Source: Candidatus Woesearchaeota archaeon | GTDB lineage: Archaea; Nanobdellota; Nanobdellia; Pacearchaeales; GW2011-AR1 | Reading direction: 5' to 3' | Assembly: GCA_964410025.1 (NCBI GenBank) | Contig: CAYPFA010000002.1 | Coordinates: forward strand, 15,653-79,652 | Length of the DNA: 64,000 bases | Shown here: positions 6,001 through 61,552 of the stretch, piece after piece | Numbering within the stretch: the first letter of the stretch is position 1 | How the letters are laid out: each line of letters starts with the position of its first letter | Notes under the pieces: generated by a model | Seen by the model: only the letters and a program-made list of their open reading frames with translations | Database searches by the model: none | What the model was told of the DNA's origin: nothing | Program-made: the position numbers and the translations under genes

Positions 6001-9000
6001 AGTTATGTTTGAGAAAACATTACCTATACCCATAATATCTGAAACTCCATCACGCCCATTCTGTTCTGAAACTACATCAGAAAAGATATTCCCAGAATTT
6101 TCACCAATAGTAACGCCATCTATAGTTGAAGAAACATCAATACCAAAATTCAAATTATTAGAAGTAATTATGTTCGTCAAAACATTATTAGTTGAATTAT
6201 ACAAAGAAATACCACGCTCATTCTCGTTCGCAATAATATTGCTAAGATTATTATATTTAGAACTTTCTATATAAATACCCTCCTCCGAATTAGAATTTGC
6301 AGTTACATTATCTAAAACATTACTGTTTGCTGAATATAAATAAATACCATTTACAGAGTTAGAATTTGCAACAACATTTTCAATTTGATTTCCGCTTCCC
6401 AAAACACTCAAGCCAATATCACTATTGGATACATCCACGTTTCTTATTATATTATTCTGCTCGGTTACAATTCCTCCGTAAAATAATCCTGGGAAACCAG
6501 CAACTCCATGAACACTACTATCCTCCAGTATATTATTTGAGCCAAATAAATTTATTCCCGCCTCCACCCCGTAACTAACCGAAATTCTACTTAAGTTATT
6601 ATTATTACCAAAAACAAATATCCCAAAATAATTTGAATTTATAATATTTATATCACTAATCGTACTAAAAGAAGGCCCAGATGTAAGCTCCATTCTTCCA
6701 AAACTAATTGAGCCACCACCAACCAAACTTAAATCTCCGAAACCTTCAATTGTCATGTTTTTTATAGAAACACCACTCAAACCAGAATCAACAATAATCC
6801 CCCAATCACTACCAACAGAATCTCCACTTATTGTAAATCCATTCCCGTCTATTATAACATTATCCGCAGCTATATTAAAACAATTTTCTGTTGTTGTTAT
6901 ACTTTGATTCAATGTGTAAGTTCCTGGGAAGATGATATTCGTGCAATCATAAATTATATAATAAGTATCGGGAACAACAACACTCACACTTACATTTCCT
7001 GTTCTGCCTGGAGCAGCAGTATATATACCCGTAACATTAAAATCATTAAAATCATCCATCCAAGAATTATATGTAGCTGATGTGACAAAGTCTGACGAAT
7101 TTGTTAAAACATAATTAATCGCAGTTGCCCAAATATTAAATTCCGAATCGCTTCGGTTATACATTGGATAACCCCCATGATATCCCGAAAACATGTATGA
7201 TCCAGAAGGATCTGGGTCTAATGGACACTCTGCATCACAAGAAACTGTTAAATTAAGCGGGTATGTTCCATAACTAATATCAAAACTCTGATCACTCAAA
7301 TGCGGCGTTATCCATTCAATATAATCCAACTTCCCATTTCCATCCATATCATACGCATCAAAAGGAACATACTGATTTTCTTCAACCCAGTAAACACTAA
7401 TATTCCCCTCTTCACCTATATTATATATCTCAGAAATATTTGTAAAAGATAAAACATCAGTATAGTTCAATTCATCAGCAGCAGAAATAACAACCTGTTT
7501 TCCATAACTCGTTTCATTCTCAAAAGAAACCGGAGCTTCAGTATAATATTCTATACTATATTCTGTGGAATTCTGATCAATAACCAACTCAACAAAATAC
7601 TGAGAATCTGCAGACGAAGAAACATCTATTTCGCTCACAACTTTACCTGTCATTAAATTTTTAAAGAAATCAGAAATTTTTCCAGAAATTTTCTCAATCA
7701 GTGTAGGCTCTTTTTGTTCAAGTGAAATAACCACATTTCCCGTCAATAAACCACTTGTTTTTACATCAGAATTTTCAATATCACTCACACTAATATTTTC
7801 CGCACTAGCTGGCAGCTGAACAGTAATTTGCTCAGGCACATCAAGAGAAATATTTTGTGTCCATTTTACCTTTTCGCCAACCTTAATCTGCCCTCTTTCT
7901 GTTTTAACATTTATATTTCCCGAAGAAACCATCACATTAAAATCATTACTCTCAACCTGACCCACCGAACCATAGGCAACAATATTAGCTCTTCTAACTC
8001 CTCTAAAGTCTTCCTCGGGTATTAATGTCAAAATATTATTTTCAAAAACCACACTAAAATTATTTAAACTCAATTCATAACTCTCCGCTCCCACAAAATA
8101 TTTACCCAAATCCAAGCTATAATTTTCACCAGATTTAATTCTTATCGTTGGAATTTCTCCCACAAAACTTAAATTAGACAAACTATCATTAACCGCCTTA
8201 TCTATCACTGTTTCATTTTCCAAAGGCGCATTTTCATGAACATAAATTTGCTTTTCTATTTTAGCAAAATCAATTCCCTCATAAACCAATTCGATACTCA
8301 ATAAATTATCACTCACACTCAAATTCAATATATTCAAATCTAAAGCTATTGTCTTCGCAATATCTCCCAAATAATCTTCACCAAATCCACTTTCTTCTTT
8401 TTCATAATTAGTTTTAATAATTACCTTTCCATCCACAACACTTAAACCTAAAACAGCATCAGCAACACTTGCACTTCCCTCAATAATTTCAGCAACACAT
8501 CCTGAATCTAAATTATATTCGAAATCTTTTTCTTTACTAGCCTTTCCATCAACTTTAAAACCAGTAGGAGCAATAACATTTCCAGAAATTAAATTTACAG
8601 ATTCTTCAACAGAAGCTTCGGGAGCAGCACTTCCCTCGACTACCGGAGGAGAGGGAATGTTCTCTGAAGAAGTTTCTGAAACAATGGGAGTTTCAACAAC
8701 TGAAGTTTCTTCAATAACAGGAACAGTAGGGACTTCATTAGCTAAAGTTTCTTCTAAAACTGGAACAACAGGAAATTCCGTATTGAAAGCTTCTTCCACA
8801 TTCTCATTAATATTCCCCTCTGGATTATTTTCCACAACGGGAGTTTCATCAAAGCCAGAACATGTTACAGCTAATTTAAAATCAACCTCAGGATAAGTTA
8901 TTTTTTTACCCGCAACTCCAAAACCCTCTCCTGAATCCGAAAGCGCAATTCCCTCAGCATAAAATTTTCCATTCAAAGATTGTTCATTTATCAAATCTCT

Positions 9001-9237
9001 AAAAATATAATCATTAGAATAATTCCCCAAAGAAACTCTTAAAATAGAATTAACAGGAATCAATTCACCCGCCTTCATAGAAAGCTTAACTACTCCTTCT
9101 AAATTTTCTCCGACAATATAATCCTGTTTTATAGAAAAAATAGCATTACCCGTAGATGAAAAATTGTTACAAACTGCAAGGATTGCAATAACTAAAATGA
9201 TTAAAAAAATAACTCCATAAATATAGTTCTTACTCAT
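1..9237 (-). CDS. giant secreted/cell-surface protein, 3' end beyond window (at least 3079 codons): N-terminal hydrophobic anchor, acidic E/V/T/P linker, EF-hand-like Ca loop, parallel beta-helix repeats, two GLUG-repeat modules, Gly-rich Pmp-like ~29-aa repeats, SBBP-like beta-propeller repeats
   Basis: ATG at 9237-9235 gives MSKNYIYGVIFLIILVIAILAVCNNF. I hand-translated only spot segments (9237-9160, 7380-7321, 5400-5341, 4800-4741, 2109-2020, 560-500, 60-1), all open and in one frame. Continuity between them is inferred because the track lists no minus-strand ORF here, as expected if no stop falls in the window. Motifs read: GGLVGYQVGGTISNSY (GLUG), DMDGNGKLDY, SSNISGNINAYGGNS, DVAVDVFGNVFVGGY. 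Confidence 0.85.
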   Translation of the reverse strand, partial: MSKNYIYGVIFLIILVIAILAVCNNFSSTGNAIFSIKQDYIVGENLEGVVKLSMKAGELIPVNSILRVSLGNYSNDYIFRDLINEQSLNGKFYAEGIALSDSGEGFGVAGKKITYPEVDFKLAVTCSGFDETPVVENNPEGNINENVEEAFNTEFPVVPVLEETLANEVPTVPVIEETSVVETPIVSETSSENIPSPPVVEGSAAPEASVEESVNLISGNVIAPTGFKVDGKASKEKDFEYNLDSGCVAEIIEGSASVADAVLGLSVVDGKVIIKTNYEKEESGFGEDYLGDIAKTIALDLNILNLSVSDNLLSIELVYEGIDFAKIEKQIYVHENAPLENETVIDKAVNDSLSNLSFVGEIPTIRIKSGENYSLDLGKYFVGAESYELSLNNFSVVFENNILTLIPEEDFRGVRRANIVAYGSVGQVESNDFNVMVSSGNINVKTERGQIKVGEKVKWTQNISLDVPEQITVQLPASAENISVSDIENSDVKTSGLLTGNVVISLEQKEPTLIEKISGKISDFFKNLMTGKVVSEIDVSSSADSQYFVELVIDQNSTEYSIEYYTEAPVSFENETSYGKQVVISAADELNYTDVLSFTNISEIYNIGEEGNISVYWVEENQYVPFDAYDMDGNGKLDYIEWITPHLSDQSFDISYGTYPLNLTVSCDAECPLDPDPSGSYMFSGYHGGYPMYNRSDSEFNIWATAINYVLTNSSDFVTSATYNSWMDDFNDFNVTGIYTAAPGRTGNVSVSVVVPDTYYIIYDCTNIIFPGTYTLNQSITTTENCFNIAADNVIIDGNGFTISGDSVGSDWGIIVDSGLSGVSIKNMTIEGFGDLSLVGGGSISFGRMELTSGPSFSTISDINIINSNYFGIFVFGNNNNLSRISVSYGVEAGINLFGSNNILEDSSVHGVAGFPGLFYGGIVTEQNNIIRNVDVSNSDIGLSVLGSGNQIENVVANSNSVNGIYLYSANSNVLDNVTANSNSEEGIYIESSKYNNLSNIIANENERGISLYNSTNNVLTNIITSNNLNFGIDVSSTIDGVTIGENSGNIFSDVVSEQNGRDGVSDIMGIGNVFSNITVNSNGYVGLHLYYSSNNNLSDISANLNNWTGIYLESSLNNNLGGVSGGNLDDDVWCLNSSVNTNNGLIFTTQRGCDSWLMHGSGTAGDPYQIDSWAALNATRNNLTAYYILTANLSSETAGYVGLGDSWVPIGGCGPTDGECFLGDLSYSFSGNFDGQNNTISDISRSGENMVGFFGFITGNVSNIGLINVSFSSYGDIVGGLVGYQVGGTISNSYITGEVRGHYWTGGLVGYQVGGTISNSYSTGIAYSNGDWTGGLVGQSSGIISNSYSTGYVQGNGDYVGGLVGQSSGTISNSYSIGDVDVGSDYVGGLVGYQASGTISNSYSIGIVYNGDVNYGGLVGLSSGTITNSYYNSETSGQSDNDGRGVPKTTVQMKNIFTYDVGGWNISSNVTDVNSYPYLAWQAANNDYVWMINQAPSFDIVDCGYLNSAGEYNLLNDISAGEGNDCLIIRADDVTINGNGFTVTGNVNATNNSINDYYGDGTLMNGYGAYGGLILNNITIIGNVSLIGGNGAAPLGGSGNGGSVTLNNSNVSFINSYGGIAYGDTVGSGGAVTLISSNVSGINSYGGIDSQDFMGYNSAGGGNGGLVVANFSIISGNINTFGRGNMVFIGGGGNVYLFNSSAQNISANAPFADNKGIPSYAELINSNASFVDVSDMGASFGSCDAGLVTLRNSNVENILSFGGYSGGEVLGGCSGGEVNLLDGSSATLIDVHGGGGSGDGGSGGIITLNYSILNSGWAINVSGGIGLEVNGTDGEVNYLLYDCSSDLSYGSPVRYDLQNNITGDCNVRGDNVTIDGNGFTITGNVNAARLENQYCTALNSDSCSEPGFIIVGFNLSTGNGFDAFTNLVLNNLIIDGNVYALGSSSQTVSDGYTLIGGNGGNGGFVNISFSNINEIYTSGGPGGVGDESLDSGGASGQIAMSNSIVGNIIANGGAGWGYGGSSGNSSPIGIFNSSVGSVSASSSSENNCNGGNGAAINITLSNITGNINANGGENILSPLSLSSYCNPGSGLSINMVSSNMGGNISANGGDSIYSNGGNGAIINITSSNISGSINVSGGDGGIGGSGGAIMIVNSNITAIISDDGDYGNGPAISRGGDVVIGGSRIMSVSAQGGDGINGGDSSAGGNVRIINSIIENVTTAAGNWMVGSGNSGKNGGAVNVINSTIAFINTTGGSGAYGSASGNAGAINISLSNITGDIVANGGIGEIGGSYPASGNGATIDISSSNITGKIDAYGGDSFASSGGNGAGINITSSNVTGSINNYGGSSNEGLAGNGGIININSSNISGNINAYGGNSEYATAGSGAIININSSNISGNINAYGGNSFAISGGNSAAINIISSNMLGDINAYGGISFGGNGGNGAAITATSSNVTSIAAYGGAGGTASGYGGVVTLIYSRVNLSGGINIGDGYSSDESTRNILFRQSVLFNEFGELKYLTNFSTRYSVLPLGMVQIGNDFAYVNSDVTPATSLNSSANVTLNLSSFEFVNPQILKDGVLCVAPGCNILSHNRTSEIIKFNVSSWSNYTISETTFAAGSGTAGDPYQIDSWYSLNAVRNNLSAYYILTANLSSATQYYSGIGNSWVPIGNSTIGYEFSGNFNGQNNTISNLKINLPSTFNVGLFGGSSGDISNLGLINVNISGSDVVGGLVGYQTGGTVSNSYSTGNVTGVGVGTGGLVGYQVSGAVSNCYSGVKVSGGSMITGGLIGYSAGTVSNSYSTGNVTGTNYVGGFVGWQAGGGTITNSYAIGKVVGSSYTGGLVGSSSGTITNSYYDSETSGQSDNDGRGEPKTTAQMKNILTFGSWNITQGLTNINNEYPYLAWQANNNSSVWMIYQVPLNVTSARLASSGIKNYTNENLSCYANATSGYGKEIIYSGDWYRNGTVFVQSSYRTLGKIGSGAYGIDVDDFGNQYIVDGYSISKYNSSDNQVWNKSTSGWVSDVAVDVFGNVFVGGYIERLAPDYNTELIISKYDFNGNVLWEKSVGDGSAVLESSDVAVDVFG
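2021..2167 (-). repeat. in-frame 87-nt (29-codon) tandem repeat inside the giant gene
   Basis: The 60 nt at 2021-2080 are identical to 2108-2167. The same ~29-aa Gly/Asn/Ser unit recurs in diverged form from about 1840 to 3100. Confidence 0.9.
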
Positions 9238-9325
9238 CTGCCTCCTCTGCTCTCTTTTCATAAAAAATAATAAACATCAGACTTTATAAACTTTATAGAA
9301 ATAAATACCCCTCAATAAACCCTAA

Positions 9326-47222: not shown

Positions 47223-48443
47223 TTACAATCCTAACGATTCAACTAAAATTGCCTCTACTTTCTCCAAAATATTTGAAGGAATAGAAAGCTTAACTTCCCT
47301 TGTTCTTCCGTGCCTCCCTTTTGAGATAACTCTCGCATTTATTAGCCCAAGCATATCTATTTCACCAATAATATCTGAAACTCTCCTTTGGGTAAGAAAT
47401 TCTATTTTTATCTTATTACAAACATCTTGATAATAATTATAAATATCTCCTGTAAAAAAATTATTTGATTCATTTCCGTCTTTTCCTTCCTTCTTTGTTA
47501 ATTGTAATATAGAATATAAAACCACTTGAAATTGTGTCGGTTCGGTTTCAACTATGTCTAATATTTTATCTTTTTCCATTTTCTGATTAGCCTGATCAAT
47601 ATAAATCTCATCTATTCTTAATTTTCCATCTCTTTCAGCAAGTTCACCTGCTATCCTAAGTAAATCTAAAGCTCTTCTTGCATCACCATGTTCTCTAGCT
47701 GCAAAAGCTGCACATTTTGAAATAACGGCCTCATCGACAGCATTTTCTTTAAATGCCTGCTTACACCTCTCATTTAAAATATCTTTTAACTGTACTGCAT
47801 TATATGGTGGAAATATCACTTCTTCTTCTCCAAGAGAACTTTTTACACGCGGATCTATATTTTCTAAAAAAGTAACATCATTAGAAATCCCTATAATTGA
47901 TATTTGGGCCTTACTTAACTCAGAATTTAACCTCGTAAGAGAATATAAAAAACTATCATCTATTTTTTTAACAGCTTGATCAATTTCATCAAATATAATA
48001 ACAACTAATTGTTTTTTAGAATCTATTAAATCAATAAATATTGAATAAACCTTATCGGTTGGAAGACCTGTTGCTGGAACACTTCCTCCAAGTTCTGCAA
48101 TTAATGCTGCTAAAATCCTATATTCCGTATCGGCAATTTTTCTTAATTTACAATTAATATATTCTATTCTTATATCCACACCTATTTCTTTAGCTCTTTT
48201 AAGCAACTCTTCCCTAACATATTGAACTGAAAGTGTTTTTCCAGTACCTGTTTTACCATAAACAAAAAGATTACTAGTTCTTTCTCCTCTTAAAATAGGA
48301 GCCATCATTGAAGCTACTTGCTCAATTTGTTTATCTCTATGGGGAATAGATTGAGGTGTATAATTTGTTTGTAAAACACTCTTATCTTTAAATAAAGAAT
48401 TTTTAATAGCTGAATCAAATATATGTGAAATTTGTGTTCCCAT
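47223..48443 (-). CDS. cdc6: Orc1/Cdc6 replication initiator
   Basis: Walker A GKTGTGKT; Walker B IIFDEID; C-terminal winged-helix-like region. Confidence 0.9.
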   Translation of the reverse strand: MGTQISHIFDSAIKNSLFKDKSVLQTNYTPQSIPHRDKQIEQVASMMAPILRGERTSNLFVYGKTGTGKTLSVQYVREELLKRAKEIGVDIRIEYINCKLRKIADTEYRILAALIAELGGSVPATGLPTDKVYSIFIDLIDSKKQLVVIIFDEIDQAVKKIDDSFLYSLTRLNSELSKAQISIIGISNDVTFLENIDPRVKSSLGEEEVIFPPYNAVQLKDILNERCKQAFKENAVDEAVISKCAAFAAREHGDARRALDLLRIAGELAERDGKLRIDEIYIDQANQKMEKDKILDIVETEPTQFQVVLYSILQLTKKEGKDGNESNNFFTGDIYNYYQDVCNKIKIEFLTQRRVSDIIGEIDMLGLINARVISKGRHGRTREVKLSIPSNILEKVEAILVESLGL

Positions 48444-48934
48444 TTTTTAAACCTCTAAAACAAGAAATGAATAAAGACTATTTAAATATTCATATATCGG
48501 AAAACATATATCTATCACCTCTATTTCCTTTAGAAAAATTATTTTAAATTATCTTTATTTAATTAATTAATAATTATTTTTACCGATGATAATCATTATT
48601 AAACACAAACACTCCCTCACACCTCTATTTCCTTTCCAGAAGAAATAGAGTTAAATAAAAAAATTTATTATACTATATACTATAATGTATATAATATAAT
48701 ATATATAATATAATATATAAAAGCTTATAAATAAAAAATAAACATTTTTGATTTTCTTTTTTGCTTTATAAATCTTATTCCATTTGAAATTAAGGGGTGA
48801 GTGTTTATAAAAAATACATCAAATATGTATTTTAAGTTGACTTTTTTAGAGAAAATTTTAATTAAATTATAAAAATAAGATATATTATACACGACTATAC
48901 AAAGGTTTATAAATAAATTTACAATATTTTTATC
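48444..48934. other. candidate replication origin (oriC): repeated ORB-like boxes flanking an AT-only unwinding region
   Basis: CACCTCTATTTCCTTT at 48516-48531 and 48620-48635; dyad CTCTATTTC/GAAATAGAG at 48623-48650 containing TTCCAGAAGAAA; AAACACTC at 48607 with inverted GAGTGTTT at about 48799; (TA)-rich tract about 48650-48790. Lies directly upstream of orc1/cdc6. Confidence 0.6.
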
Positions 48935-49189
48935 ATGGACAAAAGACCCTTCAAAAGTTTATTGGGAAAGCAAGTGGTGACAAAAGAAGGTAAGAGGCTA
49001 GGAATAGCTAAAGACTTAACTTTTGAAACAAAAACAGGAGAATTAATTCACTTGGTCATACGAGATTTAACTCCATACACAGCGAATCTTTCTTTGGAAA
49101 GAACAAAAGATAAAGAGGCATTACTTCCTTTTAATTCTTTAATAGCTGTTGGAGATTTTATAGTCGTTTCAGAAGAAGACCTAGTTTAA
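48935..49189 (+). CDS. PRC-barrel domain protein
   Basis: LLGKQVVTKEGKRLGIAKDLTFETKTGELIHLVI. Confidence 0.65.
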   Translation: MDKRPFKSLLGKQVVTKEGKRLGIAKDLTFETKTGELIHLVIRDLTPYTANLSLERTKDKEALLPFNSLIAVGDFIVVSEEDLV

Positions 49190-49223
49190 TTCTACAAAAG
49201 TTTTAAATCATCAAACTAATAAA

Positions 49224-49643
49224 ATGGCAAGAGAAATAAAGTTAGCAGGATTCAAGTACACTAAACTTAGTGCTGAACGAGTTGAAGATTTTAAAGGAGA
49301 CTTAAAAATAACTCCAAATATTAATATTTCAAATATTGATAAACCTAAATCTTCCATAAAACAAGATTCTTTAGTTGTTGATTTTATTTTTGGCGTTGAT
49401 TATAATGGTTTAGGAAAAATAGAATTGTTTGGAAAAATGTATCTAATTGTTGATTCTAAAACAGTTAAAGAAGTTATTGATGGTTGGAATTTAAAAAAAC
49501 TAGATAATGAAATTAATATGGTAATTTTAAATATAATTATGCAAAAGGCATCACTTAAGGCTTTAGAATTAGAAGAAGAGTTAAATCTTCCTCCCCATAT
49601 TCAATTACCAAGACTTCAATTAGAAAAACAAGAAAAAAATTAA
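49224..49643 (+). CDS. hypothetical protein (139 aa)
   Basis: Track ORF; no motif recognised. Confidence 0.5.
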   Translation: MAREIKLAGFKYTKLSAERVEDFKGDLKITPNINISNIDKPKSSIKQDSLVVDFIFGVDYNGLGKIELFGKMYLIVDSKTVKEVIDGWNLKKLDNEINMVILNIIMQKASLKALELEEELNLPPHIQLPRLQLEKQEKN

Positions 49644-53845: not shown

Positions 53846-54520
53846 ATGGATCCAATTAAAGAAGCTTTTCAGAAAATAAAAGAAGAAATGTTGGAAATTA
53901 GAAAAGAAATTTCCGCTTTAAAACAAGAAATTTCTTTAAAGCCAAACTTATCAGACTTAGGTGGTTCTTCGGCAAATCCGTCAATTATTCCAACACAAAC
54001 CCATCATCCAACAGACACTCCCGCACAAACTCCGGCAGTTCCACAGGAAATAGGGGGGTTAAAACAATCAAGTTTCATAATCTCCACAGGAAATAGGGGG
54101 GGTCCAACAAACACATCCACAGACAGTCAAACAAACCAACAAACCAGCAATTTCAACATTTCTCCTCGAGAAACACTATTAGATAGGTCCATAAACCTTC
54201 ACGAAACTCTCTCTAGTGTAGATAATATTAAGCGAGAATTAAGGCTTAAGTTTAAGAGATTAACTACTCAAGAAATGCTCGTTTTTTCAACCCTCTATAG
54301 TTTAGAATCTCAGGGTTTTCAGGAAATTACCTATAAAATCCTTGCAAACAATCTTAATCTCAGCGAATCTTCAATTAGAGATTATATATCTAAAATCTCA
54401 GCCAAAGGAATACCCGTTTCCAAGACTAGGTTGAATAATAAACTTATAGTATTGAATATCTCTCAAGATCTGCAAAAAATAGCTTCCCTAGCCACCATAA
54501 TGCGTTTGAGAGAGCTTTAA
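53846..54520 (+). CDS. coiled-coil / P,T,Q-rich linker / C-terminal HTH protein
   Basis: N-terminal heptads; C-terminal LTTQEMLVFSTLYSLESQGFQEITYKILANNLNLSESSIRDYISKI. Contains the duplicated poly-G 18-mer. Confidence 0.6.
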   Translation: MDPIKEAFQKIKEEMLEIRKEISALKQEISLKPNLSDLGGSSANPSIIPTQTHHPTDTPAQTPAVPQEIGGLKQSSFIISTGNRGGPTNTSTDSQTNQQTSNFNISPRETLLDRSINLHETLSSVDNIKRELRLKFKRLTTQEMLVFSTLYSLESQGFQEITYKILANNLNLSESSIRDYISKISAKGIPVSKTRLNNKLIVLNISQDLQKIASLATIMRLREL

Positions 54521-54819: not shown

Positions 54820-55422
54820 TCATTGTTCTACCTGTTTTCTTCTTTGTAGTTTAACTCTCACTTTTCCATTTTTGAGCATAATTTGCTTCATTTCTTCAGG
54901 AATATACAATCTTTTCTTGCCATTTGCCTCTCTAGCCTCCATTATTAATCCTTCACTCTTCTGCCTTATGGTATTAATCTGTCCCCTAACGGTGCTTTTA
55001 TCTTTTCCTAATAAAACAGCTAAATCTTCATAGCTTAGTTTTTGATCAGAGTTTGCAAGCGCCCAAATTACAGCTCGCTCCATAAGTGATAAATTGTCTA
55101 AAATAGTTGTTTGAACAGCCGTTTGCACGCCTTCTTGAACACTTACAACACTTGTTTGTTTATTAGAATTTGCCTGCGGTTGTTTGGACAGCTTAGAACC
55201 AAACAGTGAAATAAAATTTTTCATCTCTTCCATTTCACTCTGTACTTCAAAAAGTTGTTTCTTTACATCATCTATTTCAGTGTCTTGGACATGTTCTTTA
55301 GCGTCGAAATGCTTTATCCATTGACTAACTTTACCAAAATCTTGTTTCACAGAATCAAAAGACTTTTGTATTTCAAGCCTCATTTGTTCATTCTCATCTC
55401 TTTTTTTAAACCAACCAAACAT
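54820..55422 (-). CDS. coiled-coil / Q,T-rich linker / C-terminal HTH protein (same architecture as 53846-54520)
   Basis: LSLMERAVIWALANSDQKLSYEDLAVLLGKDKSTVRGQINTIRQK. Confidence 0.6.
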   Translation of the reverse strand: MFGWFKKRDENEQMRLEIQKSFDSVKQDFGKVSQWIKHFDAKEHVQDTEIDDVKKQLFEVQSEMEEMKNFISLFGSKLSKQPQANSNKQTSVVSVQEGVQTAVQTTILDNLSLMERAVIWALANSDQKLSYEDLAVLLGKDKSTVRGQINTIRQKSEGLIMEAREANGKKRLYIPEEMKQIMLKNGKVRVKLQRRKQVEQ

Positions 55423-55803: not shown

Positions 55804-56106
55804 ATGGGTGTGATGCGTAATATTTCAATATCTTTAGGTTGTTCTTTGGCTTATTTTTTCTCATCTTTTTTCGTAAACATAATTCCATGTCAAATGGCGC
55901 CAAATGTTCCAAATCCGATTTATTCATGGGCACTTTGCAATATAAATCCAGACCAAATTTCATCTTTCGGGATACAGAAGCTTTACTTTGGCATAACCAC
56001 AAAGTTAGCTGAAACATACTTTATTTCGTTAGTTTTGATTTTCGCAATATTTATGATAATTTTATCTCTATTTTTTAGAAAATCAAAAAAAATAAAAGAT
56101 GAGTGA
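55804..56106 (+). CDS. doubtful hypothetical ORF with C-terminal TM
   Basis: Track ORF. A competing minus-strand ORF (55766-56017) covers the same DNA. Confidence 0.25.
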   Translation: MGVMRNISISLGCSLAYFFSSFFVNIIPCQMAPNVPNPIYSWALCNINPDQISSFGIQKLYFGITTKLAETYFISLVLIFAIFMIILSLFFRKSKKIKDE

Positions 56107-56117
56107 AAGGAGGTTTA

Positions 56118-56327
56118 ATGGCAAAAATACAGGAAAAAAGCAAGTTTAATTTTTCAGCTTTCCTTGCGTGGATGGTTGGAATCTTAGTATCTTTAGCAGT
56201 AGGTTCCGGAATGATCGATAAGATACTTACAATTCCATTTGTTCCAAATATAATAACAGCTATCGCAGGTTGGATTGTAGTAATCGGCGCAATAATTTCA
56301 GTAATCGCTGCAATTTTTAACAGATAA
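56118..56327 (+). CDS. small two-TM membrane protein (69 aa)
   Basis: GGAGGT lies 5 nt upstream of ATG 56118. MAKIQEKSKFNFSAFLAWMVGILVSLAVG.... Confidence 0.6.
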   Translation: MAKIQEKSKFNFSAFLAWMVGILVSLAVGSGMIDKILTIPFVPNIITAIAGWIVVIGAIISVIAAIFNR

Positions 56328-56539
56328 ACAATCAATCATTTTATTTTTTATTTTTATTTTTAAGTAAAAAGAATTATAGTTTGCATCCAGTGTATTTTTA
56401 GCCGCAGGCTGTTAATTAAGTCGTATGCAAAGGTAACCTTAGTGCATAAAACCGCGGTAACTGAAAAATCTGTGAGCGCGAAGGCAAAATATAGCATAAT
56501 CACATAAATATTTATAAACAAAACTCATAATAAAATCAA

Positions 56540-56935
56540 ATGAACAAAATAACCATTTCAGGATTTGCCCAAGGCGGAGGATCTTTTTATTTAGAATATA
56601 AAGATAGGCAAAACAGTGAAATCATAAGAGTATTTAGGTTGGAAGATACAGAATCATCGCCAGTTTGGTGTTCAGTCGATACAAAATTTTCAAACGGACA
56701 AAGAGAACATTTTTCTGAAGAAATGCCATTCCCAAGAAGAAATCCATTCTTACCAAGAGCACTTTATCTTCAACCTCTCGAATATCTTGCGGCAAGAGAA
56801 TATGCAGAAACAATTGTTAAAACCAATCCTGGAGAATTTAAAGTTGATGACGAAATAGAGAAAAGGTTTGAATATGATATAAAGAAATCATTGCTTTCTG
56901 AGTTAAATGGGATAATTAAACAAAAAAAGAATTAA
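56540..56935 (+). CDS. hypothetical protein, gene 1 of the four-gene operon
   Basis: Track ORF; no motif recognised. Confidence 0.6.
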   Translation: MNKITISGFAQGGGSFYLEYKDRQNSEIIRVFRLEDTESSPVWCSVDTKFSNGQREHFSEEMPFPRRNPFLPRALYLQPLEYLAAREYAETIVKTNPGEFKVDDEIEKRFEYDIKKSLLSELNGIIKQKKN

Positions 56936-56936
56936 C

Positions 56937-57281
56937 ATGACAAAACCAAAACCATCACTTGAAGTTGAGAAAAGATCAGACGGATATCTTTTTACAGAAG
57001 TTAGACCAACCTATGAAGTTTATCATGGAAGAGTTCACTGTTTATCAAATAATATTCAATATGCAATAGTTTTTGACCAAGAAATTCCTTCTGCCGGAAT
57101 GGGCCCACCATTTACTAAGCCACAGCTCTTAAAGGCTGGAGACTATCCAATGATAGGTAGACATTATTTTTTAGAACATTTTATGGAAATCGAAGTAATA
57201 AGTCAGGCTAAAAAACTAGCAAAAGAAAAAGGATTAGTATTAAAGTTGGCACAAAGCCAACCTAAGTGCACAAAAAAATAA
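56937..57281 (+). CDS. hypothetical protein, gene 2 of the four-gene operon
   Basis: 1-nt spacer to gene 1. Ends ...LAQSQPKCTKK. Confidence 0.6.
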   Translation: MTKPKPSLEVEKRSDGYLFTEVRPTYEVYHGRVHCLSNNIQYAIVFDQEIPSAGMGPPFTKPQLLKAGDYPMIGRHYFLEHFMEIEVISQAKKLAKEKGLVLKLAQSQPKCTKK

Positions 57282-57282
57282 A

Positions 57283-57786
57283 ATGGAACCCAAAAAACTA
57301 ATCTTCGGACCACCATATCCATCAATCTTATTTACGGGAGAAAAGACAAAAACCTTTAGGGTTACTGGTGGCAATAGATATCAAATTGGCGATTTGGTTT
57401 CACTTTGCACGCCAGAAAAAGAAGAATTTGCTCAAGCTGCAATATTTAGCAAAACCCGAAAAAGATTTTATGACTTAACCACATCAGACTGGAAGGGCCA
57501 CGAAACATTCGCATCAGAACGAGAAATGTATATAATTTACTCCAATTGGCAAGGATTTCCGGTCGGCGGAGCAACACCGCTCGATATTATTGAATACAAA
57601 GACTTTAGAATCACAAATCCAGATTTAATCAGTCGTCTTAAACAAGGCATTTACGCTACAGATGATACCAAAGGTAACCTTGGTGCAAAGATTTTAGATT
57701 TCCAAAAAGCCTTGGCAGAAAAAGAACAAAAACAAAGGCAAGAAGATTATAAAAAAATCGCACATATAGCAGATCATCTAAAATAA
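57283..57786 (+). CDS. ASCH (PUA-like) domain protein, gene 3 of the four-gene operon
   Basis: ILFTGEKTKTFRV resembles the ASCH GxKxxExR block. Size and beta-rich pattern fit. Confidence 0.5.
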   Translation: MEPKKLIFGPPYPSILFTGEKTKTFRVTGGNRYQIGDLVSLCTPEKEEFAQAAIFSKTRKRFYDLTTSDWKGHETFASEREMYIIYSNWQGFPVGGATPLDIIEYKDFRITNPDLISRLKQGIYATDDTKGNLGAKILDFQKALAEKEQKQRQEDYKKIAHIADHLK

Positions 57787-57787
57787 A

Positions 57788-58126
57788 ATGGTAGAACAAA
57801 AAATTTATTTCTGTAAATATTTAGGTTATAATATCACTGGCATTGCCGCACGAAATTGTAACTATTCCAATCTAGATGGCTACACCTGCAGGCATTCTGG
57901 CGAAGATTGTGTTGCAAAAGAGGGATTAATCGCATTTCAGCAAAAATTAGAACAAAGTCAACCTAAGTGCATAGATTCAATAATTGATGAAACTTTGCGC
58001 CAATTAGAGTGGTTACATGAAATAGGATCAAATCTTCCCAAATCTGTCATTCACACAGCGCAGGGAGGAATTGCTATAAAAATTCCAAATTATACTGCAC
58101 CAGATGATTGGCGCCCTAAAAAATAG
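57788..58126 (+). CDS. Cys-rich hypothetical protein, gene 4 of the four-gene operon
   Basis: Six Cys in the first 42 aa. Contains ...LEQSQPKCIDS. Confidence 0.6.
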   Translation: MVEQKIYFCKYLGYNITGIAARNCNYSNLDGYTCRHSGEDCVAKEGLIAFQQKLEQSQPKCIDSIIDETLRQLEWLHEIGSNLPKSVIHTAQGGIAIKIPNYTAPDDWRPKK

Positions 58127-58152
58127 AATTTTAATTCAAAATCACTCCAAAG

Positions 58153-58178
58153 GTTCGCACAAGATACATTGTGCGAAC
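58153..58178 (+). terminator. 9-bp perfect hairpin downstream of the operon
   Basis: GTTCGCACA-AGATACAT-TGTGCGAAC, 27 nt after the stop at 58126. Confidence 0.35.
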
Positions 58179-58287
58179 TCAATTTCAAACCCTTAAAGCA
58201 CGATTTTTTATCCTTTTCATGGTTTTGGAAAATTACAAGAAACACCCATGATAAGTCATCCATGCACTAACCCACCAAAGTATAAAA

Positions 58288-58460: not shown

Positions 58461-58520
58461 TTTAAACCTTTGGCCGCAGGCCGTTAGATCAAATTTTTAA
58501 ACCTTTGGCCGCAGGCCGTT
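58461..58520. repeat. 25-nt perfect direct repeat x2 (period 35) containing GCCGCAGGCCGTT
   Basis: TTTAAACCTTTGGCCGCAGGCCGTT at 58461-58485 and 58496-58520. A related GCCGCAGGCTGTT is at 56401-56413. Confidence 0.9.
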
Positions 58521-58521
58521 C

Positions 58522-59154
58522 TTAAACCTTACCGACAAAACCAATGACTGTTTTCCCAGAATCCACATGCTGTCCCTTGTGTGCAATTAAAACCACATTT
58601 TTTTTGGGCAAAATAATGCTTACTTGCGAACCAAAGTTAATTCTTCCGATTCGGTCACTTCTCTGAAGTTTTTGTCCAGGTCTAACCCAATTTTCTATCC
58701 TTCTAACAAAAAACCCCGCAATTTGAATAATCTTAAACTTTCCAATTTTCGGATTTTCAAACAATGTCTCGGTTTTTTCATTTAATGCCAAACTCTTAAA
58801 ACTATTACTAAACCTAAACTTTCCATCCACATGCTTCACTCCTAAAACCTTTCCATCAACAGAAGCCCTTTGGATATGTACATCCATCGGACTCATAAAA
58901 ATAGACACTAAATAGCAAGAATCCGCCACATCCTTTGCGCTTGTTTTAATTTTCCCAAACCAGCCCTTTTTTATTTCCATATCATTTTTTTGGTTTATTT
59001 CTAGGATTTCAATAATTTTTCCAGAAGCAGGTGAGACAATATAATTCTCTTTTTGAATTTCTACCCTAGGATCTCTAAGAAACCAAACTCTCCAAAAAAC
59101 AAGAAAACAAGCCACAATTACTATTAAATATAATAAAATAATAAATGATATCAT
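58522..59154 (-). CDS. psd: phosphatidylserine (archaetidylserine) decarboxylase proenzyme, short form
   Basis: N-terminal TM; FGSQV self-cleavage-type G-S motif near the C-terminus; 210 aa. Confidence 0.7.
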   Translation of the reverse strand: MISFIILLYLIVIVACFLVFWRVWFLRDPRVEIQKENYIVSPASGKIIEILEINQKNDMEIKKGWFGKIKTSAKDVADSCYLVSIFMSPMDVHIQRASVDGKVLGVKHVDGKFRFSNSFKSLALNEKTETLFENPKIGKFKIIQIAGFFVRRIENWVRPGQKLQRSDRIGRINFGSQVSIILPKKNVVLIAHKGQHVDSGKTVIGFVGKV

Positions 59155-59243
59155 CCCTAGTCTCCTCCTTTTAACACTAACCCCTCTTTTTTTATAAAAA
59201 AATAAAAATAAATAAATATTGTTTGCAAAACTAAATCAGATTG

Positions 59244-59426
59244 TTAAAATCTGTTTGGTCTTGGCATTTTGCTGAAACATTCTCTGCAATAGACTGGTTT
59301 TCCCTCTGTTGGTTTGAAAGGTACTTCGCATTCTTTATTACATTTTGAACATGTAGCTTTGTGCATTTCTCTTGGTCCATCGAAATCTCTTCTAGGTCCT
59401 CTGCTGAATCCGCCGTTAAATCCCAT
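59244..59426 (-). CDS. small CxxC...CxxC zinc-ribbon protein with RG-rich N-terminus
   Basis: CSKCNKECEVPFKPTEGKPVYCRECF. Confidence 0.7.
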   Translation of the reverse strand: MGFNGGFSRGPRRDFDGPREMHKATCSKCNKECEVPFKPTEGKPVYCRECFSKMPRPNRF

Positions 59427-59535
59427 TGTTGTATTTTTATATCCTCCGTGTGTATTTAATTAATCTGAGAAGTCTTAATTGCTTAATCTAACTCAAATAC
59501 ATAATTTTACATAAAATTGAGGTTATAAACCTATG

Positions 59536-60111
59536 CTATTTAAAATAAACTCTCTTTATTACAATATTTTCAGTCGGCCAATCAGACATTCCGCCCCTTA
59601 TTCCAGTTTTAACAATGCCAATTTTTTCAACAACTTCCATGCCAGAAATCACTTTTCCAAAAACAGCATAGCCAGGATTTCCAGGAGTATAATCTAAGAA
59701 ATCATTATCAATTAAATTTATAAAAAATTGTCCAGTTGCAGAATCCGGCACATTAGTTCTAGCCATTGCAATTGTTCCTTTATCATTTTTCAACCCATTA
59801 TTTGATTCCAGTTTTATCGGAGCATTCGTTTGTTTCTGTTGTCCACTTTGTGTAAACCCGCCACCCTGAATCATAAATCCAGCCATCACTCTATGAAAAA
59901 CCGTTCCGTCATAAAAATTAGATTTAATATAATTTTCAAAATTTGCTACAGTTATCGGAGCCTTTTCTGAATTAAGTTCTACTTCTATATTTCCTACCGA
60001 AGTTTCAATTACTACAATTTGTCGTTTATCCATTGTTGTTATTAAAAATCCCACAATAATCAGCGCCAAAATAAAAATTCCGGAACCAATCATAATGAAT
60101 TTCTTCTTCAT
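59536..60111 (-). CDS. ppi: cyclophilin-type peptidyl-prolyl isomerase, membrane-anchored or secreted
   Basis: FHRVMAGFMIQGGG; N-terminal TM. Confidence 0.9.
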   Translation of the reverse strand: MKKKFIMIGSGIFILALIIVGFLITTMDKRQIVVIETSVGNIEVELNSEKAPITVANFENYIKSNFYDGTVFHRVMAGFMIQGGGFTQSGQQKQTNAPIKLESNNGLKNDKGTIAMARTNVPDSATGQFFINLIDNDFLDYTPGNPGYAVFGKVISGMEVVEKIGIVKTGIRGGMSDWPTENIVIKRVYFK

Positions 60112-60218
60112 AAAATATAATATAAAAAAAGCTTTTTAATTCTTTCTAAACTCTACTAGAGAATAATGTTCCATAGTGTTTTCCAAATATATTTAAACCA
60201 AGGTTCGTACAATCTGGT

Positions 60219-60722
60219 ATGAAAAAAGTGGTTGTTAGTGATTTAATGCAAAAAAATTATTCTTATTTTTTATCAGAACCAGAGGGTAAAAATTTTGATA
60301 CAGAATTTAAACCCGAATTAACGCCAAAAAAAATGCTTGAACTTGGGATTTTCGGTGGCAAATATATGACAGATTGCAAAAAAGAATTTCCGAAGGATTG
60401 GTTTGTAAAAGCAAAATTTTGTCACGAATTTCATGACGCAAACTTAAATTTTTTTAAAGTAAATGCATCGCAACCTCTTTCCGTTTGGCGAAAAAAAAGT
60501 TGGATTTTTTCAGAAGATCCACGTGGTTGGTTTCAATGGTATTGTAGATATTTTTTAGGTCGAAGGATTCCAGAGATGGATTTAATTCAAATAAAAAGAT
60601 GGAAAGCAATCAAACGACACATTTCACAGATTAAAAAAAATTGTTCAAAAGGAGATTTAAATTGTCGTCCCAAACAACGTCAAGCAGTTCTTCATTGGGC
60701 ATACGATTCGAGGAAACTATGA
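60219..60722 (+). CDS. conserved-looking hypothetical protein (167 aa)
   Basis: GIFGGKYM and GWFQWYCRYFLGRR blocks. Its stop overlaps the xerA-like ATG (ATGA). Confidence 0.6.
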   Translation: MKKVVVSDLMQKNYSYFLSEPEGKNFDTEFKPELTPKKMLELGIFGGKYMTDCKKEFPKDWFVKAKFCHEFHDANLNFFKVNASQPLSVWRKKSWIFSEDPRGWFQWYCRYFLGRRIPEMDLIQIKRWKAIKRHISQIKKNCSKGDLNCRPKQRQAVLHWAYDSRKL

Positions 60723-61552
60723 CGCCGGAAGAATTTCTTAAAAAACTTGAAATAGAATTAAAGATTTCCAAAAATTCCCCATATACTCTTAGAAATTATA
60801 TTGATGCAAACAAACAGCTGTTTGAACACTCAAACAAACAACCAGAAGAAATGAGTATTGACAATGTCAAGCATTTTATGGCAGAAAAACTTTCAGATAA
60901 GTCTTCTTCATCAATTATTCTTTTTTTGGCAGCACTCAAATATGCATACACCAATATTCTCAAAACCGACGTGACTCTTGGCATTAAACGTCCAAGAAAA
61001 GAAAAAAGAATTCCCACTGTTTTAACAAAAGAAGAAGTAAAAAAGCTGTTTGCTATTTTAATAAACAACAAGTCACGTCTAATGGTTTCTCTGCTTTATG
61101 CCTGTGGTTTTCGAGTTTCCGAACTAACAAAACTAAAAGTTAATGATTTAAATTTTGATGAAATGTCTGGTTCTGTTAAGCAGGCTAAGGGCAAAAAAGA
61201 TAGAGGGTTTAATATTCCAGCTTTTCTACTAGAGGATCTAAAATCTCAAGTTGATGAACAAAAAAAATTAAACCAAGAATTTCTTTTCTCAAATCCAACA
61301 ACTGGAGCTAGAATGAGCTCGGCAAATTTAGAAAAAATAGTTAGAAAGGCAGCCAAAAGAGCGGGAATTCAAAAAGACGTTCACTGTCATACACTAAGGC
61401 ATTCTTTTGCGACACATTTGCTCGAAAACAACGTGGACATAAGAAAAATACAAGAACTTTTGGGCCACGCAGATTTAAGCACAACGCAAATTTATACACA
61501 TGTTTCAAGGGAAGAATTGAAAAAAATAAAATCTCCTATTGATTTGCTTTAA
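60719..61552 (+). CDS. xerA: tyrosine recombinase, XerA/XerC/D-like
   Basis: MTPEEFLKKLE... start preferred over the track start 60641. R (GFRVSEL), HTLRHSFATHLL, LGHADLSTTQIYTHV. Confidence 0.85.
   Translation: MTPEEFLKKLEIELKISKNSPYTLRNYIDANKQLFEHSNKQPEEMSIDNVKHFMAEKLSDKSSSSIILFLAALKYAYTNILKTDVTLGIKRPRKEKRIPTVLTKEEVKKLFAILINNKSRLMVSLLYACGFRVSELTKLKVNDLNFDEMSGSVKQAKGKKDRGFNIPAFLLEDLKSQVDEQKKLNQEFLFSNPTTGARMSSANLEKIVRKAAKRAGIQKDVHCHTLRHSFATHLLENNVDIRKIQELLGHADLSTTQIYTHVSREELKKIKSPIDLL

Follow-up and report, generated by a model that had tools for sequence, protein, structure and literature searches.

In the R64-type shufflon, the Rci recombinase acts on 19-bp sfx repeats that are arranged as inverted repeats, and the resulting inversions swap C-terminal tails within a cell line. 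In polymorphic toxin loci, a short motif conserved as DNA (VENN in CdiA, PxxxxDPxGL in Rhs) marks the point of module exchange; the N-terminus stays constant, and the C-terminal toxin and its immunity gene vary. Here we describe an archaeal locus in which parts of proteins also meet at a short DNA repeat. It lies in a 64,000-nucleotide stretch (hereafter the window) of contig CAYPFA010000002.1 from a Candidatus Woesearchaeota archaeon, where four small genes form a tightly packed cassette and share a 19-nt element, the joint element, with the region upstream of them. Comparison with related loci shows that head domains and tails of the encoded proteins are exchanged across this element between genomes. 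We tentatively read the cassette as one population's version of a lineage-specific mosaic mini-gene array in the Woesearchaeota (DPANN), and not as a fixed four-gene system, though we would put this at somewhat less than an even chance.

The element accounts for a peptide, L-x-QSQPKC, that a sequence-only reading of this DNA had pointed out in genes 2 and 4. The sharing is real, but it does not lie in the peptide as such: QSQPKC is the product of a 19-nt DNA repeat, CAAAGNNAACCTNNGTGCA, and that reading overlooked the repeat, which ties the leader to genes 2, 3 and 4. Four copies lie within 1.5 kb, all on the + strand, against 0.17 expected from shuffles, and no fifth copy is found on either strand of the window with up to three mismatches allowed. 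The first copy, m1 (CAAAGGTAACCTTAGTGCA; 56428..56446, +; 'class L'), is non-coding and lies 112 nt before gene 1, with a conserved extension, TAAAACCGCGG..., that runs on from it to about 56475. Copies m2 (CAAAGCCAACCTAAGTGCA; 57252..57270, +) and m4 (CAAAGTCAACCTAAGTGCA; 57953..57971, +) are read in frame 0 in genes 2 and 4, respectively, and encode QSQPKC; m3 (CAAAGGTAACCTTGGTGCA; 57669..57687, +) is read in the other frame (frame 2) in gene 3 and encodes KGNLGA. The non-coding m1 and the coding m3 are identical at 18/19 bases, and their flanks are unrelated. In eight lineages, the motif codons are AAG (Lys) in 8/8, TGC (Cys) in 8/8 and AGC (Ser) in 6/8, against background frequencies of 25%, 25% and 5% in this genome. 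The invariant Pro and Ser found in the tail a few codons past the element are each encoded by three or four different codons. This combination of fixed rare codons in the element with varied codons at neighbouring invariant residues points to constraint at the nucleotide level. Taken together, the occurrence of the element as non-coding DNA and in two reading frames, its rare codons and its sequence identity in an island between unrelated flanks show that it is conserved as DNA. The element is the core of an imperfect palindrome, GCACWAAG-N5-CTTAGTGC, and some copies fit the pattern on both strands, which indicates dyad symmetry. The peptide string QSQPKC was not found in the literature searched.

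Related loci were gathered through the proteins, through a 20-mer derived from the upstream element copy (ACCTTAGTGCAYAAAAYCGC) on one genome per species, and through the same 20-mer on metagenomes. Six of the seven genome matches are in Woesearchaeota or unclassified 'archaeon' metagenome-assembled genomes, and 18 metagenome loci add to these; the genome records with the same locus carry the label Candidatus Woesearchaeota. About 16 distinct related lineages have two to five co-oriented element copies within 1–2 kb, in the same orientation as the genes. In about 12 loci, a leader-type element (approximately CWAAGNNNACCTTAGTGCA, then YAAAACCGCCG...) is located at a constant 112–116 nt before the first cassette ATG. 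The coding-type element, CAAAGYCAACCTAAGTGCA-CA, encodes QSQPKCT and joins a head domain to a Pro/Asn-rich tail, tail Y, which is a conserved 35 aa with the pattern FPFPHxDPNSPxYNPxKxGGDNPxP; a profile of this tail gave no matches in a 5.8-billion-protein set, for which it is too short. The usual unit in the relatives is a head–QSQPKCT–tail Y gene followed by a gene in which a 4-Cys head, CysN, is connected through a degenerate element to a helical tail X.

The window departs from this unit in its combinations of heads and tails. Heads seen in the window or in relatives are a YqfB-like ASCH domain, the g2 type, CysN and several orphans, and the tails are X (a helix), Y (Pro/Asn-rich) and W. 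Gene 1 (56540..56935, +, 131 aa) is an orphan in which both the joint element and the shared tail are absent. Gene 2 (56937..57281, +, 114 aa) has a g2-type head and the joint element (QSQPKC), then TKK and a stop, with the tail missing. Gene 3 (57283..57786, +, 167 aa) comprises a YqfB-like ASCH head (residues 1 to ~120), a disordered joint (125–131) and helical tail X (129–166), and gene 4 (57788..58126, +, 112 aa) comprises a CysN head, the joint element (QSQPKC) and tail W. Thus, ASCH is paired with tail X and CysN with tail W in the window; in L011, ASCH is paired with tail Y and CysN with tail X. The homologues of the gene 2 head in L072, L082, L087 and L079 (49% identity) continue through QSQPKCT into the 35-aa tail Y. 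Gene 2 itself ends three codons past the element, the ASCH gene begins 12 nt on, and the DNA homology of gene 2 to L082 ends after GTGCACA. Between L074 and L086, the head has ~80% DNA identity up to GTGCACAG, where homology is lost, and it is back again in CysN. In P0013, CysN lies between two element copies inside one open reading frame (ORF), and in L008 tail W stands alone as a 79-aa gene, next to a solo ASCH gene. The position of m3 is both the end of homology to ASCH-only relatives and the disordered stretch of the gene 3 model. CysN is present in almost every related array. These comparisons show that heads and tails are re-assorted across the element between genomes, and that homology breaks at the element edges.

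The four-gene arrangement, on the other hand, is confined to this population: about 12 contigs from at least 8 samples have it, and the gene order never differs among them. Samples with this population include SRR12261223-27, SRR35365923 and JGI 3300044987/90/91 and 3300045131. Conservation of the cassette as a unit in another genome, on which the sequence-only reading had made its proposal depend, was not found, as only contigs of the same population have the four-gene set. Rearrangement at the population level is not seen among these contigs, which are consensus assemblies and could hide minority forms. The 12 nt before the ATG of gene 2 match the 5' region of its L082 homologue, which makes gene 1 look like an insertion between the promoter and gene 2. 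No relatives of gene 1 were found in the related loci, and an exhaustive HMMER search with it returned two weak matches only, both to a 23-aa repeat unit of long repeat proteins, which we judged uninformative. An internal promoter for the CysN gene was considered as an explanation for its 127–136 nt spacing from the coding element and was discarded, as no TATA-like box is present.

All three gene–gene junctions in the cassette are TAA-N-ATG with a one-nucleotide gap, and these junctions and the coordinates given above bear out the claim of four ORFs of 131, 114, 167 and 112 aa separated by single nucleotides. A box resembling the archaeal transcription factor B recognition element and TATA box (BRE/TATA-like; AAATATTTATAAACAA, 56506..56521, +) is centred ~26 nt before the gene 1 ATG, where it would act as the archaeal promoter of a leaderless operon mRNA. 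The ~200 nt that had been taken for a transcribed leader are therefore probably not one. In relatives, the block ACATATAAATATTTAAAAAG is kept at an equal distance from the ATG. As judged from sequence only, a BRE/TATA-like box is found 22–41 nt before the ATG of each unit, relatives included, and its conservation near the first ATG suggests that their transcripts would be leaderless as well.

The palindromes listed for this region in the sequence-only reading can be read directly from the sequence (TTTGCAT at 56380 with ATGCAAA at 56425, both upstream of gene 1; AGCCGCAGGCT at 56400; AAGGTAACCTT at 56430; ACCGCGGT at 56452), but the unusual structure attributed to it is not borne out. The minimum free energy is −27.8 kcal/mol versus −26.2 ± 3.1 for shuffles (z = −0.53), RNAalifold finds no consensus structure over 19 leader-type copies (−0.27 kcal/mol), the extension hairpin in these 19 copies has a mean z of only −0.65, and Rfam gives no match at E ≤ 1. 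A structured leader or noncoding RNA was rejected as the main explanation on the basis of the fold z-scores, RNAalifold and Rfam together. This region also contains RGCCGCAGGCYGTT (56400..56413, +), which recurs at 58472–58485 and 58507–58520. Three copies occur in the window against 0.02 expected, and relatives have none. The three copies enclose both the cassette and the dif-like site described below; the two downstream copies are 26-nt perfect repeats in which, on the minus strand, the left half of the 19-nt element (CAAAGGT) adjoins a GC hairpin. A role for these repeats as a conserved boundary was rejected, as they are confined to this strain.

Of the four proteins, only that of gene 3 could be connected to a known family. 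The Pfam ASCH model (PF04266) matches it at 18.0 bits (E = 0.005), under the gathering threshold of 21.2, and with the NCBIfam model for YqfB it scores 13.4 bits, where the cut-off is 93. The ASCH/PUA-like signature that the sequence-only reading had noticed is thus weak in Pfam, and the predicted fold then confirms it. The structure prediction and Foldseek search that had been proposed there give an AlphaFold2 model with a mean predicted local distance difference test score (pLDDT) of 84, in which an ASCH barrel leads into a disordered segment that coincides with the element, and then into a long helix. Among known structures, E. coli YqfB matches best (9kyf; E 1.8e-4, template modelling score 0.79 normalised to target), ahead of the ASCH structures 3s9x and 5guq. 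Essential residues of YqfB are Lys21, Thr24 and Arg26, with Glu74 important as well (PMC6972931), and ASCH proteins have been reported as erasers of N4-acetylcytidine (ac4C) in tRNA (2026 preprint, bioRxiv 10.64898/2026.02.27.708502). The G19-x-K21-T-x-T24-x-R26 segment of gene 3 (GEK21TKT24FR26) aligns to the YqfB motif GRKTITIR. E74 is also invariant in the gene 3 family and may correspond to YqfB Glu74. The relatives of gene 3 are mostly ASCH-only proteins of 116–123 aa. The motif and the model suggest that the gene 3 product is probably a hydrolase of N4-acylcytidine or an eraser of ac4C in RNA. In its ASCH barrel, its best structural match and the aligning G-x-K21-T-x-T24-x-R26 it resembles the YqfB/ASCH ac4C amidohydrolases; it departs from them in its identity of only 17%, its Pfam score below the threshold and the 38-residue helix to which the joint element connects its head.

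The CysN head of gene 4 contains C9, C24, C34 and C41. Six Cys residues had been claimed in its first 42 residues; we count these four, with a fifth at position 61. An AlphaFold2 model of gene 4 made from a two-sequence alignment has a pLDDT of 40 and is unusable. Genes 1, 2 and 4 and the heads of the relatives have no match in Pfam, PHROGs, NCBIfam, PADLOC or PDB sequences, and known families were rejected for all of them on these negative searches. None of the four proteins matches PADLOC at E ≤ 1, and the cassette has no defence, toxin or modification-system match in Pfam, NCBIfam, PHROGs or PADLOC. A known defence system is therefore without support.

The array ends at a second site of interest. 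The hairpin that had been noted after gene 4 with a 9-bp stem is present, but its stem is 11 bp, and a dif-like XerA site is a better reading of it than a simple terminator. The putative site, GGTTCGCACAA-GATACA-TTGTGCGAACT (58152..58179, no strand assigned), is 28 bp long with 11-bp inverted arms, of which 10/11 positions are complementary, and a 6-bp spacer; the hairpin has z = −4.8. Of its 28 positions, 19 match E. coli dif. Both archaeal and bacterial dif sites have this 11-6-11 layout (PMC2958812, PMC5357621). A single full dif-like site is present in the 64-kb window. The left arm and spacer are exact in L073, L074, L078, L080, L085 and L091 and near-exact in L072, L086, L008 and L081. 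In all ten relatives the site closes the array on its 3' side and precedes the xerA operon, and in L074, L078, L080 and L086 it lies 147–148 nt past the last element. In these four loci (for instance, L074 6789–6935 and L078 566–712), the stretch between the last element and the site is a conserved block of ~150 nt with a hairpin, CTGTTGAGAGAT...ATCTC...AACAG, whose stem shows apparent covariation between genomes; the window does not contain this block.

The 167-aa/xerA operon (60219..61552, +) consists of a 167-aa gene (60219–60722) that overlaps xerA (60719–61552, 277 aa) by 4 nt. The 167-aa gene is kept upstream of xerA in L073, L078, L086 and the P0002 contig, and in all four the operon is downstream of the array. 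The 167-aa protein has no significant Pfam or NCBIfam match. The xerA product scores 221.7 bits with recomb_XerA_Arch (NCBIfam; cut-off 220) and 216 bits with the integron integrase model TIGR02249, under its cut-off of 265; its PDB matches are IntI4 (as two stretches only) and XerA (5hxy, 4a8e). A second dif left arm, GGTTCGTACAA (60202..60212, +), occupies −17 to −7 relative to the start codon of the 167-aa gene, and L073 has the same arrangement. As this arm overlaps the predicted start region of the operon, it suggests XerA autoregulation through a dif half-site at the start of its own operon. With the array ending at the dif-like site beside the xerA operon, the array sits on the flank of the XerA module, which would be prone to recombination.

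In the window, the dif-like site is separated from the 167-aa/xerA operon by genes for a phosphatidylserine decarboxylase, a small zinc-ribbon protein and a peptidyl-prolyl isomerase (PPIase) at 58522–60111, minus strand. In L073, L078 and L086, the 167-aa gene comes almost directly after the dif-like site, so the three-gene block here looks inserted or inverted. The statement that the surroundings hold no housekeeping genes is thus partly incorrect, as phosphatidylserine decarboxylase, PPIase and xerA are all within 3.5 kb downstream. The same contig encodes Cdc6/Orc1, an Lhr helicase and archaeal ribosomal proteins, which mark the host as an archaeon. An origin-like, AT-rich gap (27% GC) comes after the Cdc6/Orc1 gene (47223–49224 for gene and gap). 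Only ~9 kb separate it from the dif-like site, a distance not expected if that site marks the terminus. A giant ORF of at least 3092 aa (1–9300, minus) runs off the window start; its hydrophobic N-terminal segment suggests that it is probably a large surface protein of a kind common in DPANN genomes.

The position of the locus is syntenic among related loci that are long enough to show their neighbours. Upstream of the array, the relatives have two helix-turn-helix (HTH) genes, two small membrane-protein genes and usually a 53-aa gene that is ribbon-helix-helix-like (RHH-like) by eye and has no family match; downstream they have the 167-aa gene and then xerA. In the window, two winged-HTH proteins are encoded upstream of the cassette (53846–54520; 54820–55422, minus strand). 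The window has small membrane-protein genes of 74 and 100 aa at 56103–56327 and 55804–56106, and these are kept directly upstream of the array in all relatives. In the distant relatives L081, L089 and L092, the 19-nt element precedes small membrane-protein genes and not head–tail genes. The sole inverted copy seen is a full element in L077 (6579–6597; also in L088), ~30 nt upstream of the leader-type copy. Mobile-type genes come next in some relatives: in L069 (8743–10051), the array is directly followed by a Resolvase-domain serine recombinase plus 'Recombinase'-only proteins, and in L072 (6341–6808, oriented) and L008 (6684–7136) it is directly followed by a zinc-ribbon/HNH-like endonuclease.

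How the element might work can be proposed with similar caution. According to the mosaic-array reading that we favour, the proteins would be assembled from an interchangeable head domain and a short tail, joined at the 19-nt element. A dimeric DNA-binding protein encoded in or beside the locus would bind the element, and the upstream copy would help to control the leaderless operon. The identical internal copies would be the sites where recombination swaps modules in frame. In short, the element would be the operator of a regulator, its repeated identical copies doubling as recombination joints, a proposal whose chances we place just short of even. We count in favour of this reading the RHH-like gene and the two HTH genes on the flanks of the array in relatives. 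From the sharing of tails, and from CysN as a ubiquitous partner, one may further speculate that the heads are alternative cargoes or effectors that dock to a common partner.

Several observations weigh against this reading. No element-binding protein was identified, and the window is without the serine recombinase, HNH gene and RHH gene that adjoin arrays in relatives. Coding copies conserve the left half of the palindrome only weakly. QSQPKCT and tail Y are kept as protein too, so conservation is partly at the protein level. Replacement of a head requires a second breakpoint near the ATG, where no element sits, and the common order in the roughly 12 contigs argues that exchange is not frequent in this population. 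Finally, the related loci were recruited with element-derived patterns, so the association with arrays is partly built into the sampling; this bias is tempered by the loci found through proteins (L008, L011 and L069), which also have the element.

The next most likely alternative, close behind the operator reading though on the unlikely side in itself, is that the 19-nt elements are dedicated site-specific recombination sites and the locus a cassette platform analogous to an integron, a shufflon or an IMEX array (of integrative mobile elements exploiting Xer). XerA, or in some genomes a serine recombinase, would then excise and re-insert segments between co-oriented sites and so build in-frame mosaic ORFs. 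The constant 3' edge at which homology breaks, GTGCA(CA), would be expected of such sites, as would hybrid junctions, of which L074 provides one (a coding-type element at 6789 with a leader-type extension) and the window another (m3, a leader-type element with a tail). The element is also palindrome-like, the array abuts the dif-like site and xerA, cassette number varies among genomes, the last copy in L069 is 12 nt before the ATG of the Resolvase-domain recombinase, and a copy in L081 is 148 nt before xerA. However, all copies in the arrays are direct repeats, so simple recombination could only delete, and no population heterogeneity is seen in about 12 contigs. The central bases vary between element copies, the integrase is of the ordinary XerA type by its 216 bits against the integron cut-off of 265, and the window is without a catalytic serine recombinase. 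We also discarded the notion that the element is a hybrid dif site, as it shares neither the GATACA spacer nor the GGTTCG arm, and its GCAC..GTGC spacing is 3 nt longer than that of the dif arms. The conserved promoter block within each unit is likewise left unexplained. In more specific form, the elements would be substrates of the XerA beside dif, or of an L069-type serine recombinase, and the locus an archaeal platform for in-frame domain shuffling; we regard this as unlikely. The same low standing applies to the corresponding view of the platform as integron-like, with sites inside genes that double as peptide linkers.

A further possibility is that the element is a feature of the proteins, with QSQPKCT opening a conserved tail peptide, for example a docking or processing motif. 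DNA identity would then stem from gene conversion among paralogous cassettes, and the non-coding and out-of-frame copies would be relics. The large majority of coding copies do read QSQPKCT in frame 0, followed by the conserved 35-aa tail, and the joint is disordered and linker-like in the gene 3 model. Relics would hardly be expected, though, to include a non-coding copy that is equally conserved across ~16 lineages, at a fixed promoter distance and with its own 45-nt conserved extension. Copies read in another frame are retained as well, in m3 and at L069 8614, and the codon pattern described above, in which rare codons are fixed in the element and neighbouring invariant residues vary synonymously, argues in the same direction. 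We therefore consider a purely protein-level explanation distinctly unlikely.

The view taken in the sequence-only reading was that of a self-contained four-gene accessory system, concerned with defence, toxicity or nucleic-acid modification, whose products cooperate. Part of this stands: the genes do form a co-directional, tightly coupled operon in a variable region, with three TAA-N-ATG junctions and a single promoter, and in relatives HNH and recombinase genes adjoin the locus. The ASCH head, moreover, probably acts on modified cytidine (PMC6972931; bioRxiv 10.64898/2026.02.27.708502). The proposed defence, toxin or modification role is not supported. The set is confined to this population, gene 1 is an orphan and gene 2 a truncated head–tail protein, and the recurrent unit elsewhere is the pair of head–tail Y and CysN–tail X. 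PADLOC, Pfam and PHROGs lend no support, and the phage and viral collections contain no relatives, so that cooperation of the four products as one system seems very unlikely to us. In IMG/VR, the general 19-nt pattern gave 56 single matches, in line with chance, and two specific patterns had no match there; a tblastn search of phages with genes 3 and 4 came back empty, and no viral relatives of CysN were found by profile. A viral or phage origin was rejected on these results.

The least probable explanation, to which we give very little credence, is that the element acts in RNA, as a binding site for a protein or a trans-encoded antisense small RNA or as a processing site along the polycistronic transcript: every copy is on the sense strand, the palindrome could give an 8-bp RNA hairpin and the ASCH head is a nucleic-acid-binding fold, but the upstream copy is ~85 nt before the predicted transcription start and so probably outside the operon mRNA, the folding and Rfam results given above (consensus −0.27 kcal/mol, mean z −0.65 for the extension and −0.53 for the leader) provide no structure, no complementary copy of the element exists in the 64 kb, and arrays without ASCH have the element too.

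If the mosaic-array reading is true, this DPANN lineage keeps a dedicated locus beside an XerA/dif module for swapping heads and tails at a fixed DNA joint. It would represent natural prokaryotic domain shuffling at a defined nucleotide site, and would provide a tractable model for the origin of mosaic proteins. The locus also gives a first handle on 'dark matter' proteins of Woesearchaeota, including a probable ac4C-type amidohydrolase head and the ubiquitous 4-Cys partner, as well as a candidate dif site for this group and a putative xerA promoter with a dif half-site.

The comparison with described systems places this locus near several of them and within none. Like the shufflon, it has repeats of ~19 bp inside ORFs, at the boundary with alternative protein parts, and a tyrosine recombinase gene downstream. 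Unlike in the shufflon, the copies are direct in the window and in the clusters of the relatives, variation falls mainly in the N-terminal head, every unit comes with a putative promoter of its own, and several coexisting arrangements are not seen in about 12 contigs from at least 8 samples. With integrons, including those of archaea (PMC9668308), it shares co-oriented small accessory ORFs, a repeated site-like element and an adjoining Xer-related tyrosine recombinase. It differs from them in the absence of attC sites (55–140 nt, GTTRRRY core), the repeats here being 19–23 nt and situated inside ORFs or before promoters. The IntI-specific insertion is absent as well, and the score is under the integron-integrase cut-off. 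In place of the common Pc promoter that serves the promoterless cassettes of integrons, the cassettes here have their own BRE/TATA-like box, and the elements join protein domains.

The IMEX arrays at dif (CTX/TLC and the gonococcal genomic island; PMC5357621) resemble it in having a variable array beside a dif-like site, a nearby Xer gene and short repeated sites. However, IMEX flanking sites share one arm and the central region with dif, and the 19-nt element shares neither; the term IMEX does not appear in the review PMC8371274, where we looked for it in connection with archaea. As in polymorphic toxin loci, a short DNA-conserved motif is found where modules recombine, but the polarity here is reversed, with heads that vary and tails that are shared, and no toxin or immunity domains are recognisable. 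The locus thus fails a defining feature of shufflons, integrons, IMEX and polymorphic-toxin cassettes alike. With no account of it found in the literature searched, the layout of a mosaic mini-gene array seems not to have been described before, and, if our reading is true, it would be a new kind of cassette array that takes its place beside integrons, shufflons and IMEX.

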